64,000 nt of DNA from Escherichia coli (GTDB lineage Bacteria > Pseudomonadota > Gammaproteobacteria > Enterobacterales > Enterobacteriaceae). The notes under the pieces are model-generated. The model had not been told where the DNA came from, searched no databases, and worked only from the letters and a program-made list of their open reading frames with translations. Shown piece by piece: positions 14,903 to 56,730 of the stretch; the first letter of the stretch is position 1, and every line of letters begins with the position of its first letter. A program made the position numbers and the translations under genes. The stretch lies in NCBI RefSeq assembly GCF_030384885.1, contig NZ_CP128613.1; one strand, written 5' to 3'.

Positions 14903-15694
14903 ATGGCTAACGCAGATCTGGATAAACAGCCTGATTCTGTATCTTCCGTGCTGAAAGTTTTTGGCATTTTGCAGGCGCTGGGTGAAGAGCGCGAAATAGG
15001 GATAACCGAGCTGTCGCAGCGCGTCATGATGTCAAAAAGCACCGTTTATCGCTTTTTACAGACCATGAAAACCCTGGGTTATGTGGCGCAGGAAGGGGAG
15101 TCGGAGAAATATTCGCTGACCTTGAAATTGTTTGAACTGGGCGCTCGCGCGTTACAAAACGTCGATTTAATTCGTAGCGCAGATATCCAGATGCGTGAGA
15201 TCTCCCGCCTGACGAAAGAAACTATCCACCTCGGCGCACTGGACGAAGACAGTATTGTTTACATCCACAAAATTGACTCTATGTACAATTTGCGCATGTA
15301 TTCACGGATTGGTCGTCGTAATCCGCTGTACAGCACCGCGATTGGTAAGGTACTGCTGGCATGGCGCGATCGCGATGAAGTGAAGCAAATTCTCGAGGGC
15401 GTGGAGTATAAACGCAGTACCGAACGGACCATCACCAGTACAGAAGCGTTATTACCCGTTCTGGACCAGGTGCGCGAGCAGGGGTATGGCGAAGATAACG
15501 AAGAGCAGGAAGAAGGACTGCGTTGCATTGCGGTTCCGGTATTTGATCGCTTTGGCGTGGTCATTGCCGGTCTGAGCATCTCCTTCCCGACGTTGCGTTT
15601 CTCTGAAGAGCGTTTACAGGAATATGTCGCAATGTTGCATACCGCGGCGCGCAAAATTTCTGCCCAAATGGGTTATCACGACTATCCGTTCTGA
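14903..15694 (+). CDS. kdgR: IclR-family transcriptional repressor KdgR
   Basis: 263-aa product MANADLDKQPDSVSSVLKVFGILQALGEE... with N-terminal HTH and IclR effector domain. Confidence 0.92.
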   Translation: MANADLDKQPDSVSSVLKVFGILQALGEEREIGITELSQRVMMSKSTVYRFLQTMKTLGYVAQEGESEKYSLTLKLFELGARALQNVDLIRSADIQMREISRLTKETIHLGALDEDSIVYIHKIDSMYNLRMYSRIGRRNPLYSTAIGKVLLAWRDRDEVKQILEGVEYKRSTERTITSTEALLPVLDQVREQGYGEDNEEQEEGLRCIAVPVFDRFGVVIAGLSISFPTLRFSEERLQEYVAMLHTAARKISAQMGYHDYPF

Positions 15695-15837
15695 TGAGAG
15701 TAAGAACCTGTCTGAATATCAAACAGACAGGTTCTTTATTTAGCATGAGAAAAATAAAGTTGAAGGTGGCGTTATATTAAACGCACTTGCGATAAGAATA
15801 TTTTACTTATGAGTGAGAATCTGGTTATTTATTACCC

Positions 15838-16077
15838 TTAACCATTATCGACCACAATATTGCTTTTACGTAACAACGGGCAATCTGTTATCCCCAGAAA
15901 ACCACTTTTAGTGTGCAGGTATTGTACCGTGCTGGTGCCTCTGGCGGTCAGATAGGTACATTGCAAACCTAATCCCGCGGCATTCTCTTTGCTTCCAATC
16001 AAAACGCCATATCCGCTGAGTAATAATCCTATCCATACCAGTGCTATCAGCATAACTGTGCGAATGATGAATCGCAT
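15838..16077 (-). CDS. yobH: Small membrane/secreted protein YobH
   Basis: 79-aa ORF MRFIIRTVMLIALVWIGLLLSGYG... with N-terminal hydrophobic helix. Confidence 0.8.
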   Translation of the reverse strand: MRFIIRTVMLIALVWIGLLLSGYGVLIGSKENAAGLGLQCTYLTARGTSTVQYLHTKSGFLGITDCPLLRKSNIVVDNG

Positions 16078-16235
16078 TACAACCTCTTCTCTTTTTATGT
16101 TCGCTTAATCGTAGCGGCAATATGCGCTGAAGCAAGCGACTCATTCTGAAAAAGCACGAATATCGACATAGTTAGGCGCTGTTTAACTAACACATGCTAG
16201 TTTAATGACATAAGGTAGGTGAAACGGAGATTGGA

Positions 16236-16379
16236 GTGAAAAAGTTTCGATGGGTCGTTCTGGTTGTCGTGGTGTTGGCTTGCTTGCTGCTTTGGGCGCA
16301 GGTATTCAACATGATGTGCGATCAGGATGTACAATTTTTCAGCGGAATTTGTGCCATTAACCAGTTTATCCCGTGGTGA
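16236..16379 (+). CDS. mgrB: PhoQ-inhibiting small membrane protein MgrB (47 aa)
   Basis: GTG-initiated ORF (not in >=60-aa track) translating to (M)[46 protein letters not shown]; GGAG RBS upstream. Confidence 0.88.
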
Positions 16380-16453
16380 TATCATTTTTTCAGCACTAGA
16401 TTTTCTTCCTCTCCAGCAGTGGTAGAATAGCGCCTCTACTCAGAGGTGGTGAA

Positions 16454-16741
16454 ATGAACGAAGTTGTAAATTCAGGCGTGATGAACATTGCGTCTTTGGT
16501 TGTATCGGTGGTGGTTCTTCTTATCGGGCTCATCTTGTGGTTTTTTATCAATCGTGCCAGTTCACGAACTAACGAACAGATTGAACTGCTTGAGGCGTTG
16601 CTGGATCAGCAAAAACGTCAAAATGCACTGTTACGTCGTTTGTGCGAAGCAAACGAACCTGAGAAAGCAGATAAAAAGACCGTTGAGAGTCAAAAATCGG
16701 TTGAAGACGAAGATATTATTCGTCTGGTCGCCGAACGGTAA
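16454..16741 (+). CDS. yebO: Small membrane protein YebO
   Basis: 95-aa ORF MNEVVNSGVMNIASLVVSVVVLLIGLILWFFINR... TM helix plus charged C-terminus. Confidence 0.85.
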   Translation: MNEVVNSGVMNIASLVVSVVVLLIGLILWFFINRASSRTNEQIELLEALLDQQKRQNALLRRLCEANEPEKADKKTVESQKSVEDEDIIRLVAER

Positions 16742-16754
16742 TCCTTCCTCAATC

Positions 16755-16795
16755 TTGAGTAACCCCGTCGTTGAAGGGTTACTCAATTCATCCTG
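16755..16795 (+). terminator. Hairpin terminator after yebO
   Basis: Perfect inverted repeat TTGAGTAACCC...GGGTTACTCAA immediately after the yebO stop; the T-run is weak. Confidence 0.5.
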
Positions 16796-17410
16796 ATTAT
16801 ACGCACTGTCATGGTGCAACTGCTTCAATTTAAAACTCTGGTCTGACTTCAAATAATTATCATATTATTTATTTGCGTAACGGGATATCAGAAAAAGATA
16901 TTTAGCCCATTAATTTATTAGGATGTTTACATCGGATTTGTGATTAAGCGTGTTATTATTTATTAGCGAAACGTTTCTCTCTTGATTTTTTTGCGCATTC
17001 ATCAATTTTTCTTATTTTAAATTTACAATACCTTTGGGGATTGACTTCTCTTTGGGGTGATTGATAGCCGTTAACTGACTGTTTTATGAGAAAAAGTGAT
17101 ATAACTTTTTATTCATTGCATAGCAGAAAATGTGATATTGCACGCACTATGTAATAACTTCTCCCATTGGCCTGGAACAACTGAACTTATTGAACTATGT
17201 TAGAAAATACGTCAGTTTAAGTATCTGCCTGAACTGGCAAGGTTAAGCACAATGATATATCGGCGCGTATTCCGTTGCATAAGTGTGCAAAAAAAGTGGA
17301 AGACGTATCGAGATTTGTGCGTCTGATCGAGACATGTTTAAAAATGGCTTGCCATAATTAACGTTGTATGTGATAACAGATTTCGGGTTAAACGAGGTAC
17401 AGTTCTGTTT

Positions 17411-17554
17411 ATGTGTGGCATTTTCAGTAAAGAAGTCCTGAGTAAACACGTTGACGTTGAATACCGCTTCTCTGCCGAGCCTTATATTGGTGCCTCATGC
17501 AGTAATGTGTCAGTTTTATCTATGTTATGCCTGCGGGCGAAGAAAACAATCTAA
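17411..17554 (+). CDS. yobF: Small protein YobF (47 aa), co-transcribed with cspC
   Basis: ATG ORF (below track threshold) giving [47 protein letters not shown]; ends 12 nt before cspC. Confidence 0.8.
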
Positions 17555-17566
17555 GGAATTTTTCAA

Positions 17567-17776
17567 ATGGCAAAGATTAAAGGTCAGGTTAAGTGGTTCA
17601 ACGAGTCTAAAGGTTTTGGCTTCATTACTCCGGCTGATGGCAGCAAAGACGTGTTCGTACACTTCTCCGCTATCCAGGGTAATGGCTTCAAAACTCTGGC
17701 TGAAGGTCAGAACGTTGAGTTCGAAATTCAGGACGGTCAGAAAGGTCCGGCAGCTGTTAACGTAACAGCTATCTGA
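17567..17776 (+). CDS. cspC: Cold-shock-domain protein CspC
   Basis: 69-aa product [37 protein letters not shown]... with RNP1/RNP2 motifs. Confidence 0.95.
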
Positions 17777-17822
17777 TCGAATCCACTGATCTGAAGTGTG
17801 AAGACACTTCAATCTCGCTATA

Positions 17823-17849
17823 AAGCCTCGTCGAATGCGAGGCTTTTTA
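17823..17849 (+). terminator. Intrinsic terminator after cspC
   Basis: Hairpin AAGCCTCG-TCGAAT-GCGAGGCTT followed by TTTT. Confidence 0.8.
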
Positions 17850-17941
17850 CTTTGTTTTATCTTCGCTCCTGGCGTTCGGATATTTGCCCGCCGCGTGATT
17901 CGCGTTACACTTGCGGCCTTTAGTATCCTGCCGGAGTTGTC

Positions 17942-18751
17942 ATGTCGTTTTCCTGTCCACTTTGCCATCAGCCTCTTTCGCGTGAAAAAAACAGCTATAT
18001 CTGTCCCCAGCGACATCAGTTTGATATGGCGAAAGAAGGGTATGTCAATCTGCTGCCCGTTCAGCATAAACGGTCTCGTGATCCGGGCGACAGCGCGGAA
18101 ATGATGCAAGCACGCCGCGCATTCTTAGATGCCGGACATTATCAGCCGCTGCGTGATGCAATTGTCGCCCAACTGCGGGAACGGCTTGATGAAAAGGCCA
18201 CGGCGGTGCTGGATATTGGCTGTGGTGAAGGGTATTACACACACGCATTTGCCGATGCGCTGCCCGAAATCACCACGTTTGGCCTGGATGTCTCGAAGGT
18301 AGCGATAAAAGCGGCGGCGAAACGCTATCCGCAGGTCACTTTTTGTGTTGCTTCCAGCCACCGTTTGCCGTTTTCCGATACCAGTATGGACGCCATAATA
18401 CGTATTTACGCGCCGTGTAAAGCAGAAGAATTAGCGCGAGTAGTGAAGCCCGGCGGTTGGGTCATTACTGCCACGCCGGGACCGCGACATTTGATGGAGC
18501 TGAAGGGGCTGATTTACAATGAAGTACATCTTCACGCACCTCATGCAGAACAACTGGAAGGTTTTACATTACAGCAGAGTGATGAGTTGTGTTATCCGAT
18601 GCGTCTTCGCGGTGACGAAGCCGTCGCGTTATTGCAGATGACGCCGTTTGCCTGGCGTGCGAAACCAGAAGTCTGGCAAACGCTGGCAGCAAAAGAAGTG
18701 TTCGACTGCCAGACGGACTTTAATATTCACCTCTGGCAGCGTTCTTATTAA
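17942..18751 (+). CDS. rlmA: 23S rRNA m1G745 methyltransferase RlmA (RrmA)
   Basis: 269-aa product with N-terminal Cys4 zinc-binding element (CPLCHQ...CPQRH) and SAM-MTase motif DIGCGEGYY. Confidence 0.92.
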
Positions 18752-19314
18752 CCGTGGAAGTGCGTCCAGAGGATCTGGACGCCGATGCCGATCAGTACCA
18801 GCCCACCGAGAATTTCCGCTTTCTTCCCAATAATTGAGCCGATAAAGCGACCAACCATCATCCCTAATGTCGACATAATCAAGGTTGCACAACCAATGGC
18901 CAATGCGGTCGCGATAATGTTGACCTGCAGGAAGGCGAGACCAACACCTACAGCCATCGCATCCAGGCTGGTGGCAATCGCGGTGGTTACCAGTAGCCAG
19001 AAACCGTGTCGACGGCGCGGTTCTTCATCTTCATCATCTGCGCCACGAAAACCCTCAATAATCATTCGCCCGCCGAGGAATATCAGCAGCACAAACGCAA
19101 TCCAGTGGTTCCATTCAAGGACAAACCGGCTGGCTAACATGCCCATTCCCCAGCCGATCAGCGGCGTCAGGGTTTCGACGGCACCAAAAATAAGGCCAGT
19201 TCGCAAAGCTTCAGAAAATTTCGGTTTATGGAGGGTGGCACCTTTACCGATTGATGCAGCAAATGCATCCATCGACATACCAAACGCAAGAAGAACAGTA
19301 GCAGTGATATTCAT
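18748..19314 (-). CDS. mntP: Manganese efflux pump MntP
   Basis: 188-aa product [25 protein letters not shown]...; start at internal Met of ORF 18748..19368; overlaps rlmA stop by 4 nt (convergent). Confidence 0.9.
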
Positions 19315-53812: not shown

Positions 53813-55288
53813 TTAAATATGATGAATAATCACTTTGTTGCCCCCCTCGCTTTTCGCTTCGCGTAAGGCTTTATCTGCTTCCGTCATGACAAGCGAGATA
53901 TTACGCGTGTCACCCGTTGAAAAAACCGTGCCAATACTGATGGTCATTTGTTCAGGAACATCATATCTGTTACTAAAACCGGTCAGGAGTTCGACATTTT
54001 TACGCATACGTTCCGCAATGATTTTTGCCTGGGCACTATTGAGTTCGGTAAATAGCAAGCCAAACACCTCACCCTCCAGTCGCGCTAAAATATCATCGGG
54101 GCGGATGCTTTGCTGGATAATATCGACAATTGAAACCAGCACTTTATCACCCACACGATGTCCCCATTGGGCATTGATGCGCTTGAACTGATTAATATCA
54201 ACCAGCATGACACAAAAGTCCTTAACAACAGGTCGCGACAATAATGACTCTACGCTGTTGAAAAAGTAGCGCCGATTATAAATATTGGTCAGTACATCAT
54301 GAACTGCCAGTTTGCTGGAGAGTTGCAGTTCCTGAAAAATGTTATAAATCAGAAAAGACACAACAAACAGTTTACTGGAAACTTCAATCCCGCGACTGAT
54401 ATACCAAATGGTGTAATTATACTCATCCAGAGTCAGTAGAAGTAAGTTGCAGCATAGCGATGCCAGACATAATAATGCTATTAACGGCCATAGTTCGCTG
54501 GCTAATCGTGTACGCATGATAATAAAGAACAGTAAAAATGCCCACAAACAAACCAATATTTTTGTATAGTTGATTCCCCAGGTCGCAGTATGGTTGTCCG
54601 GACAGTAATCGACGACATACAAAGAATAGTCAGCGTTATAACTGCTCAGATTGTGTGCCAGAAGGGGAAAAACTAAAAAAGGAATCAGCGCCAGCAACAG
54701 AATGCCAGTTTTTTTCTTATTGTTGTCAAGGATGTTGTCTTTCCCATAACAAAAGAGCGCCAGCGAGGTTAAACAAATGAAACTGAGTTGGCGGAAAATA
54801 TAGAAAATAGAAACATCATTCGACTTTGTCTGGATCAGTGTACTGCCGTTGATTGGTTTATGGATAATTACAATGGTTTCAACTAAATAGATAAGGCCAC
54901 TTAAAAATGCAAGGCTTAAAATGAGTGTTGGTAAAATTTGTTTGTTAGTGAAATACTTCATTAACATGAAAAGAAAAATGACGGCGTTAAGGAAAAACAA
55001 AGCCACAACAACCATCAGGTAATTCATCTGTGGGATGAGTTTTACATTCGTGTTTTCGTTATATAAGGTAGTAATGCACAATAAAATTAACGTCAGCAAT
55101 AAGCTGAAAATAAAAAAGCCTTGAGCTTTTAATTTTTGTGTACCCATAGAAGCCATAAAAAGGAGAGCAATGTGAGTGCTGGATTTTATTGATGGCAGAG
55201 ATATATGGTTTTGACCAGGATCAATTTTCGTTGACGATAAAAAATAATTAAAGAATAACCCCAGGGAAATACGTGTTGACCGAATCAT
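53813..55288 (-). CDS. cdgI: Degenerate GGDEF-domain membrane protein CdgI (YeaI)
   Basis: 491-aa product with multi-TM N-terminal region and GGDEF-like domain in which the active-site motif reads EGEVF; markedly AT-rich coding sequence. Confidence 0.88.
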   Translation of the reverse strand: MIRSTRISLGLFFNYFLSSTKIDPGQNHISLPSIKSSTHIALLFMASMGTQKLKAQGFFIFSLLLTLILLCITTLYNENTNVKLIPQMNYLMVVVALFFLNAVIFLFMLMKYFTNKQILPTLILSLAFLSGLIYLVETIVIIHKPINGSTLIQTKSNDVSIFYIFRQLSFICLTSLALFCYGKDNILDNNKKKTGILLLALIPFLVFPLLAHNLSSYNADYSLYVVDYCPDNHTATWGINYTKILVCLWAFLLFFIIMRTRLASELWPLIALLCLASLCCNLLLLTLDEYNYTIWYISRGIEVSSKLFVVSFLIYNIFQELQLSSKLAVHDVLTNIYNRRYFFNSVESLLSRPVVKDFCVMLVDINQFKRINAQWGHRVGDKVLVSIVDIIQQSIRPDDILARLEGEVFGLLFTELNSAQAKIIAERMRKNVELLTGFSNRYDVPEQMTISIGTVFSTGDTRNISLVMTEADKALREAKSEGGNKVIIHHI

Positions 55289-55434
55289 TTTTCCGAATGA
55301 TTGTTTTCTGAAACTAAATTGTGTAAAGGTTATGCTGTCATATTTAAAGCGATTGTAAGCTAATGTATGTAATAAATGAGATAATTTACAGTGAGCTAAA
55401 AATCAGCCAGGCGATAATGACCCGGCTGACAGTT

Positions 55435-56730
<1,296 letters not shown>

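Follow-up and report, generated by a model that had tools for sequence, protein, structure and literature searches.

What fills the long gene-free gap between yebO and yobF on the Escherichia coli chromosome, and does it serve the yobF-cspC operon as a transcribed leader, as the source of a small RNA or as promoter DNA? Within the window (the whole stretch of DNA that was analysed, 64,000 nucleotides), the gap extends from 16742 to 17410 and measures 669 bp, with 16741 as the last base of yebO and 17411 as the first of yobF. The genes around it are arranged as follows.

14903-15694, plus strand, kdgR
15838-16077, minus strand, yobH
16236-16379, plus strand, mgrB
16454-16741, plus strand, yebO
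17411-17554, plus strand, yobF
17567-17776, plus strand, cspC
from 17942, plus strand, rlmA

The segment 16700-17450 showed 100% identity to E. coli strain 2013C-4282 (query 16700-17450) and was matched in 5,423 of 5,426 complete E. coli genomes. The RefSeq annotations of MG1655 and of strain 2013C-4282 both leave the gap empty. A first-pass annotation of this DNA had described an AT-rich region of about 670 bp with poly-A/T tracts and no credible open reading frame (ORF), and this description was upheld by our measurements. The G+C content of the gap was 35.3%, compared with 49.4% for the window, and equally AT-rich windows of 669 bp made up 0.7% of those in the 64 kb. A/T runs of at least 5 nt numbered seven in the gap and 3.4 ± 1.7 in shuffled sequences (fraction 0.048), which is a modest enrichment. 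The longest stop-free stretch lying wholly within the gap spanned 55 codons. The 68-aa minus-strand ORF that had been called featureless does exist at 17243-17449; a Pfam search with it gave no match, and its counterparts in other genera varied in length (120 aa at locus L009 and 62 aa at locus L029) and kept the first ~22 residues alone, which lie antisense to the invariant 5' region of yobF. On these grounds, and with no hydrolase remnant detected (see below), a protein-coding gene in the gap was rejected. An upstream ORF of 24 codons, spanning 17252-17326 and preceded by AAGG 8 nt from its ATG, was rejected as well; this ATG is missing in E. albertii, Salmonella and Citrobacter. We consider it likely, with a probability of roughly 85%, that this DNA is the control region upstream of yobF-cspC, composed of regulatory islands and two tandem promoters.

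For comparison across the family, 80 loci of Enterobacteriaceae species were collected via YebO and a 77-sequence alignment was built. The order yebO to yobF-cspC held at these loci wherever the contig reached far enough. The distance between yebO and yobF was ~600-700 bp in Escherichia, Salmonella, Citrobacter and Klebsiella, and ~1,530 bp at 32 of the 80 loci, including those of Lelliottia, many Enterobacter, Kosakonia, Buttiauxella and Phytobacter. Loci of this longer class carry a gene for a 331-aa protein with a metallo-beta-lactamase fold directly after yebO, and its presence in so many relatives would be compatible with the gap being the decayed remnant of such a gene, lost from E. coli. 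However, tblastn of two versions of the 331-aa protein against 16600-17600 returned a best E value of 0.26 with matches in scattered frames and no remnant, and the genomes that bear the gene keep ~520 bp of non-coding DNA before yobF, carrying the same islands. It follows that the long upstream region is ancestral and does not depend on the gene, and an origin by gene decay is extremely improbable.

In the alignment, identity was near 100% from 17313 past the start of cspC. Four further islands were conserved, at 16963-17020, 17113-17146, 17172-17208 and 17275-17290, and the remainder was near-random between genera. Within Escherichia (three species), 16786-17285 showed 52-84% identity. The first two segments of the interval are the following.

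16757-16790, plus strand, yebO transcript end: hairpin GAGTAACCC...GGGTTACTC at 16757-16785 and 3' end at 16790 (sequence and Term-seq)
16791-16960, no strand assigned, AT-rich spacer in which no constraint was detected (identity and column conservation)

Term-seq placed the primary 3' end of yebO at MG1655 1908212/3, equivalent to 16790/16789 of the window, in all three conditions (Adams et al. 2021, PMC7815308). The hairpin has a 9-bp stem and is followed by AATTCATCC. It was missed by a consensus terminator scan because it has no U-tract, and so it differs from an intrinsic terminator, in which a G+C-rich hairpin is joined to a U-tract; a Term-seq 3' end lies there nonetheless. This hairpin is the yebO terminator named in the first-pass annotation. 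Beyond this end, 16791-16960 showed 56-84% identity within Escherichia, where the flanking genes reached 88-98% in most 50-nt bins (three species in both cases), and ~32-46% identity to Salmonella and Citrobacter, near the level of unrelated AT-rich sequence. Column conservation in the alignment was low. This segment evolves like unconstrained spacer.

The downstream third of the interval holds the proximal promoter, P1, and the elements around it.

17313-17348, no strand assigned, nearly invariant block upstream of P1, with an A5 tract at 17340-17344 (83-96% column identity, 77 sequences)
17329-17358, plus strand, overlapping alternative promoter GAGACA-18-CATAAT with TG, predicted start ~17363-17365 (consensus scan)
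17349-17377, plus strand, P1: -35 TTGCCA at 17349-17354, 17-bp spacer, -10 GATAAC at 17372-17377, start G17385

The P1 start, G17385, is MG1655 1905641(-), supported by 249 reads and giving a 26-nt 5' UTR (Kim et al. 2012, PMC3415461 supplementary table). We took as sigma-70-type those promoters whose -35 and -10 hexamers are 16-18 bp apart and lie 5-9 nt before the start; at P1 the hexamers are 17 bp apart and the start falls 8 nt past the -10. The same hexamers were reported for an RpoD site in an RpoD holoenzyme study, and a sigma-S holoenzyme ChIP-seq peak, equivalent to 17242-17479, lies over P1 and was ascribed to the P1 start. These hexamers were found in 76 of the 77 Enterobacteriaceae sequences, and the A5 tract upstream of them may serve P1 as a UP element. 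The overlapping GAGACA-18-CATAAT promoter ranked fourth in a position weight matrix (PWM) scan. In Salmonella, the cloned 5' UTR of a yobF::sfgfp fusion starts at the base equivalent to 17363 (-48). Because this fusion starts at -48 and not at -26, the exact proximal start may differ from G17385, or there may be three starts. The promoters yobFp1 and yobFp2, together with an internal cspCp8, are cited from databases in a 2026 paper.

The distal promoter, P2, lies further upstream and is preceded by a site for the cAMP receptor protein (CRP).

17128-17149, no strand assigned, CRP site AAATGTGATATTGCACGCACTA with half-sites at 17131-17135 and 17142-17146 (consensus match and published CRP data)
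17173-17201, plus strand, P2: -35 TGGAAC at 17173-17178, 17-bp spacer, -10 TATGTT at 17196-17201 (preceded by C), start A17209

Its start, A17209, is MG1655 1905817(-), with 107 reads and a 202-nt 5' UTR (Kim et al. 2012, PMC3415461). The P1 and P2 starts both rest on this one 5'-end dataset, together with the database names. By the same definition P2 is also of the sigma-70 type, with 17 bp between the hexamers and the start 8 nt past the -10. Its pattern TGGM-N19-TAWKKT was present in 64 of the 77 sequences, and P2 came tenth when the two strands were scored roughly with a PWM. In 55 of these 64, the P2 -10 and the P1 -35 are separated by 146-150 bp, although the intervening DNA has turned over. 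The suggestion that the interval could hold additional promoters was borne out by these data, with two published yobF starts, at -26 and -202, and with the -202 promoter conserved across genera; a single start close to yobF, which had been put forward as the contrary outcome, is not the case. We also note that the island at 17172-17208 had been judged promoter-like from its conservation before the published P2 start came up.

The CRP site belongs to the conserved island at 17113-17146 and is identical to the consensus AAATGTGATCTAGATCACATTT at 15 of 22 positions, with a perfect left half. Its centre, between 17138 and 17139, lies at -70.5 from A17209, a class I position (centres near -61.5, -71.5, -82.5 or -92.5). 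The CRP table of a 2026 Footprint-seq preprint lists for yobF the reverse complement of AAATGTGATATTGCACGCACTA, letter for letter, and the CRP genomic-SELEX target list includes yobF. The centre coordinate given in the preprint is 3 nt off the centre placed here. Beyond Escherichia and Salmonella the site is partly conserved. From its position and these binding data we infer that P2 depends on cAMP-CRP in vivo. The CRP site of malT also lies at -70.5, and yobF P2, with its mapped start and weak -35, is in this respect like the malT-type class I promoters; it differs from them in that its activation by CRP is putative, and in the partial conservation of the site.

A start upstream of yobF was also sought in other datasets. 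The Salmonella 4/74 TSS 1893683 was placed approximately from three Tn5 coordinates, which agree with a start between 182 and 390 nt ahead of yobF. Such a start would be P2-like (predicted at about -204), and the fusion made by the same authors begins at -48. The SMRT-Cappable-seq supplements make no mention of yobF, and no TSS rows for the yobF locus were found in the part of the Klebsiella supplement text that was searched.

Other DNA-binding proteins and opposite-strand signals bear on whether the upstream DNA has a specific function at all. AT-rich DNA of this kind could for the most part be spacer covered by H-NS, where spurious promoters arise on either strand and nothing save P1 has a specific function. 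The RpoD holoenzyme study placed at least two peaks in the "670 bp spacer" upstream of yobF and flagged H-NS there. In a sigma-S run-off experiment in vitro, ~2.4-fold enrichment was seen both for an intergenic probe on the strand opposing yobF and for one antisense to cspC. Our scans likewise turned up numerous hexamer pairs resembling promoters on either strand; a minus-strand pair at 17240 had the highest PWM score, and promoter-like sites were no commoner in the interval than in shuffled sequences; the fast divergence of 16791-16960 would fit the same account. However, the islands at 16965-17020, 17113-17146, 17172-17208 and 17275-17290 are kept across genera, P2 combines a mapped start with a CRP site at class I distance, and the spacing of P2 to P1 is constrained. 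We regard a mere coated spacer as possible but rather doubtful, and the tandem-promoter control region as the better description of this DNA. RpoN/NtrC binding has also been reported near 17374, and under nitrogen limitation yobF-cspC mRNA falls in an rpoN-dependent manner. A canonical sigma-54 GG-N10-GC motif was absent near the reported RpoN peak on inspection by eye.

We further explored the RNA made from the two starts, whose leader segments are listed here with the conserved island that the longer one contains.

17209-17384, plus strand, portion of the 202-nt leader unique to P2 transcripts, free to vary between genera over its 5' ~65 nt
17275-17290, no strand assigned, conserved island TTGCATAAGTGTGCAA (family consensus GCATAAnTGTGCA), an inverted repeat TTGCA-N6-TGCAA at -101.5 from P1, containing a 3' end at 17286
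17385-17410, plus strand, 26-nt P1 leader with Shine-Dalgarno sequence GAGG at 17394-17397 and cold-box-like ACGAGGUACAG, the start of a cspA-like leader that continues through yobF

That yobF-cspC is co-transcribed and regulated, as the first-pass annotation stated, agrees with what has been published: post-transcriptional control is known, pairing of OxyS and CyaR has been reported near the yobF Shine-Dalgarno sequence, and YobF is induced by heat post-transcriptionally. The annotation went further and described the ~670 bp as a long leader/promoter region that could hold a thermosensing leader structure. The heat induction of YobF and the regulated leaders of other cspA-family mRNAs speak for a transcribed leader of this length or for such a structure, and RNAalifold adds a pairing between 17277-17288 and 17397-17408, immediately ahead of the yobF AUG, which could occlude the yobF start region in the predicted structure of P2 transcripts only. 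This pairing came without covariation and, because both of its sides are nearly invariant, lies beyond the reach of a covariation test. The minimum-energy fold of the E. coli sequence, by contrast, makes 17275-17290 a local hairpin and not a long-range helix. Over the P2 leader of 20 genera, compensatory change occurred in none of the 33 pairs predicted by RNAalifold (covariation term +0.33). The 202-nt leader folded no better than its shuffles (z -0.60), and the P1 leader through yobF, at z +0.94 in the 37 °C fold, was likewise inside the range of its shuffles. The mapped starts give leaders of 26 or 202 nt only, the yebO transcript ends at 16790, and the 170 bp or so that follow are the unconstrained spacer. 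A ~670-nt leader is thus not what the data indicate, a thermosensing structure within the interval found no backing in the folds, and we consider either of them very unlikely.

The part of the mRNA that does resemble cspA lies almost wholly downstream of the interval. An Rfam search of 15500-19000 at E values up to 1 returned only the cspA model, plus a chance snoRNA match (E 0.42). The match to the cspA thermoregulator model RF01766 spans 17391-17851 and scores 135.4 bits (gathering score 78). It begins 6 nt past the P1 start and has 20 nt only inside the interval; most of its score comes from the CspC coding part, and the leader part was aligned at low posterior probability. From the position of the match it follows that the cspA-like mRNA starts at P1 and that the yobF frame lies within the equivalent of the cspA 5' UTR. 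The cspA gene has a cold box and a UP element, and the P1 mRNA of yobF-cspC shares with it the RF01766 match, the cold-box-like ACGAGGUACAG and an A/T tract upstream of the -35. It differs from cspA in that its leader carries a translated frame of 47 codons (yobF), which cspA lacks, and in that no fold signal was seen; nor is cspC known to be cold-induced.

The island at 17275-17290 was also considered as a CytR site. Its left octamer agrees at 7 of 8 positions with GTTGCATT, the CytR consensus octamer; the TTGCA half-sites are not kept outside Escherichia and Salmonella, and this reading was rejected.

A Term-seq 3' end falls inside the same island. Sense-strand Term-seq 3' ends within the gap lie at 16790 and 17286 only, and the second of these, together with the P2 start, delimits one candidate.

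17209-17286, plus strand, candidate 78-nt short RNA, or an attenuation or processing product (P2 start and stationary-phase 3' end)

The 3' end at MG1655 1907716(-), equivalent to 17286, had 264,852 mean reads in LB at OD 2.0 only, and is missing from the LB 0.4 and M63 lists; the yebO 3' end had 46,490 mean reads in the same sample (Adams et al. 2021, PMC7815308). The end was classed as "orphan", lying 125 nt upstream of yobF and 78 nt after the P2 start, and a further sense-strand 3' end was listed in two conditions at 17523, inside yobF (PMC7815308). An abundant end at this distance from a mapped start, placed within a conserved island, could mark an unannotated stationary-phase small RNA of ~78 nt that acts in trans or titrates a protein such as CspC. 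The features of the RNA itself argue against this. The end lies within a local 5-bp hairpin (UUGCAUAAGUGU up to the end and GCAA after it) followed by A7, which is not an intrinsic terminator with a hairpin and U-tract, and the 78-nt piece folded with z +0.25, inside the range of its shuffles. The body of the candidate, 17210-17275, is not conserved between genera and shows no covariation, and the candidate had no Rfam match at E values up to 1. The P2 start and the 17286 end come from separate datasets and also belong to the mRNA leader. The end could equally be that of a decay intermediate or of a product of Rho-dependent attenuation. The 78-nt candidate is absent from the discussion in the source paper, and a literature search found no other paper on it. 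It is like the 5' UTR-derived RNAs described by Adams et al. (2021), such as ChiZ and FtsO, in having its 3' end in a 5' UTR past a mapped TSS, and unlike them in that it has no terminator, an unconserved body and an end in one condition, and was not followed up by the authors. A functional stationary-phase RNA from P2 to 17286 is the smaller of two speculative possibilities, the other being the RbsR site treated below, and a separate small-RNA gene is unlikely as the explanation of the interval.

The most distal islands lie at the upstream edge of the conserved DNA.

16965-16980, no strand assigned, 16-bp palindrome AGCGAAACGTTTCTCT, predicted LacI-family operator of the RbsR type (rbsD operator match)
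16997-17020, no strand assigned, conserved island adjoining the palindrome, consensus TGTCATCA-N4-TTTCATTATTTTGGTGCA, partly decayed in E. coli

The palindrome AGCGAAACGTTTCTCT differs at a single one of its 16 positions from AGCGAAACGTTTCGCT, which lies a short way ahead of rbsD in MG1655, and both have a central CG; in the rbsD control region of MG1655, TCAGCGAAACGTTTCGCTGA lies 12 nt before the rbsD ATG. The window's only exact copy of CGAAACGTTTC is in the palindrome. The core CGAAACGTTT was present at a similar position in 70 of the 77 Enterobacteriaceae sequences and missing in Klebsiella, Raoultella and Intestinirhabdus. In the palindrome, the left half is CGAAAC throughout, which we take to be of the RbsR type and not PurR's GCAAAC, and the right half is degenerate in most genera (GTTTTT or GTTTTG). 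An RbsR operator would be expected to overlap a promoter or to lie just downstream of one. The palindrome does neither: its centre is at -236.5 from the P2 start and -412.5 from the P1 start, and no convincing conserved -10 was found beside it on either strand in the alignment or by PWM scan. The rbsD operator lies between promoter and start codon, whereas 236.5 bp separate the yobF palindrome from the first mapped start downstream of it. LacI-family repressors do not usually act from such a position. In the adjoining island at 16997-17020, a small conserved ORF was considered and rejected; its reading frame is not the same from genus to genus, and an ATG is lacking in E. coli.

No link of RbsR to the yobF-cspC locus was found in the literature searched, and the palindrome is the one element of the interval that is unreported in those papers. 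In Salmonella, loss of rbsR and loss of cspC alter growth on succinate in the same way, and RbsR acts after transcription, by an unknown route, to raise RpoS; E. coli CspC has been reported to stabilise rpoS mRNA. Judged from the operator match, it is conceivable, and no more than a tentative proposal, that 16965-16980 is a real RbsR site which, through looping or an unmapped promoter, would tie yobF-cspC to the availability of ribose and nucleosides. If so, a direct link from RbsR to cspC could be the missing route from RbsR to RpoS, and we regard this as a lead and not as evidence.

Taken together, the data are best described by a control region with two tandem promoters. Both starts, the CRP site in vitro, the binding of sigma-S, RpoD, RpoN and H-NS and the 3' ends come from published data. 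Past the yebO end at 16790, ~170 bp of apparently unconstrained AT-rich DNA would lead into the islands and then the promoters. P2, with a weak -35 and a CTATGTT-type -10, is most likely assisted by cAMP-CRP and would matter when growth slows. P1 is the stronger core promoter, nearly invariant and bound by the sigma-70 and sigma-S holoenzymes, and transcripts from P2 would read through it; in stationary phase some of these may end or be cut at 17286. Downstream of P1, the mRNA is a cspA-type leader carrying the yobF frame, on which the known control by OxyS, CyaR and heat is exerted. The conserved islands at 16965-17020 and 17275-17290 fall outside this two-promoter model, and we count them against it.

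These results indicate that the interval is an ordinary, largely known complex promoter region and not a new kind of element; every main feature stands in public datasets or databases. What the analysis offers is an integrated map and two leads, the RbsR-like operator and the 3' end at 17286, which are the only parts that may add something. CspC is an RNA chaperone with effects on RpoS, on PhoP-dependent virulence genes and on the use of succinate; in ageing colonies, the yobF-cspC operon is a hot spot of mutation. Knowledge of the two promoters aids the reading of yobF-cspC expression data. It also raises the possibility of an incoherent loop, in which CRP would activate P2 and, at the same time, CyaR, a repressor of yobF.

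We compared the yebO-yobF neighborhood across 80 Enterobacteriaceae loci that had been gathered through YebO. In the region corresponding to yobF (window 17411-17554), nucleotide identity across genera was 87-99%, while the reading frame measured from the common ATG varied from 15 to 56 codons; it was frameshifted in Kosakonia, and in Klebsiella, Yokenella and Trabulsiella it was cut short by premature stop codons. The constraint on the yobF region looks to be at least partly at the level of the RNA, namely the cspA-like leader (Rfam RF01766, 17391-17851), and not at the level of the protein alone. Published transcript ends also fall within this region. A Term-seq 3' end at window 17523 lies within yobF, 44 nt 5' of the cspC start (LB 0.4 and M63; Adams et al. 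2021), and three weak 5' ends assigned to cspC map to ~17438, ~17448 and ~17455 (Kim et al. 2012). Together, these ends may reflect attenuation or processing in the cspC leader.

Upstream of yobF, the distance from the -10 element of the distal promoter P2 to the -35 element of the proximal promoter P1 (window 17201-17349) stayed within 146-150 bp for 55 of the 64 species, despite the largely randomized sequence between them. In four species the distance was 138 bp, a difference of exactly 10 bp. The kept spacing and this exact shift suggest that P2 and P1 are under a spacing or helical-phase constraint relative to each other. The P2 leader also contains an ATG-initiated ORF of 24 codons (17252-17326) with AAGG 8 nt 5' of the ATG; on sequence comparison, this ATG was missing from E. 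albertii, Salmonella and Citrobacter.

An in vitro sigma-S run-off study found enrichment of an intergenic probe on the strand opposite yobF and likewise of a probe antisense to cspC, and the top hexamer pair of our rough promoter scan was likewise a minus-strand one (TTGCCA-15-TAAACT from 17240). Antisense or divergent minus-strand transcription from ~17776 down to 16742 is possible.

The interval itself differs in content among relatives. In 32 of the 80 species it holds a gene of the metallo-beta-lactamase fold (331-335 aa; Pfam Lactamase_B_2), for example at two of the compared loci:

L009, 3308-4303, metallo-beta-lactamase-fold gene
L029, 3310-4317, metallo-beta-lactamase-fold gene

Among the species compared, Escherichia, Salmonella, Citrobacter and Klebsiella were without this gene at yebO-yobF, and no remnant of it was found in the window. 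In another locus (NZ_CP027579.1), the RefSeq tags skip from C6996_RS03210 (yebO) to C6996_RS03220 (yobF), and the gap appears once to have had a numbered feature that has since been dropped. A nucleotide search with 16700-17450 revealed an IS1 within the gap of strain ET300, and in strain 361 only the initial 15% of the query was matched; IS insertions in yobF-cspC have been reported to be adaptive in ageing colonies (2026 paper). Elsewhere in the window, a single stretch equals the gap in AT-richness: 54591-55580, which spans the 5' part and upstream region of a 491-aa membrane protein gene (53813-55288, minus strand), whose C-terminal sequence, by eye, resembles a domain of the GGDEF (diguanylate cyclase) type.

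On the upstream side (16236-16741), mgrB and yebO have separate starts, with a 19-nt yebO leader, according to Kim et al., in contrast to other descriptions in which they form one transcript; a Rho-scored Term-seq 3' end lies within yebO (MG1655 1908371).
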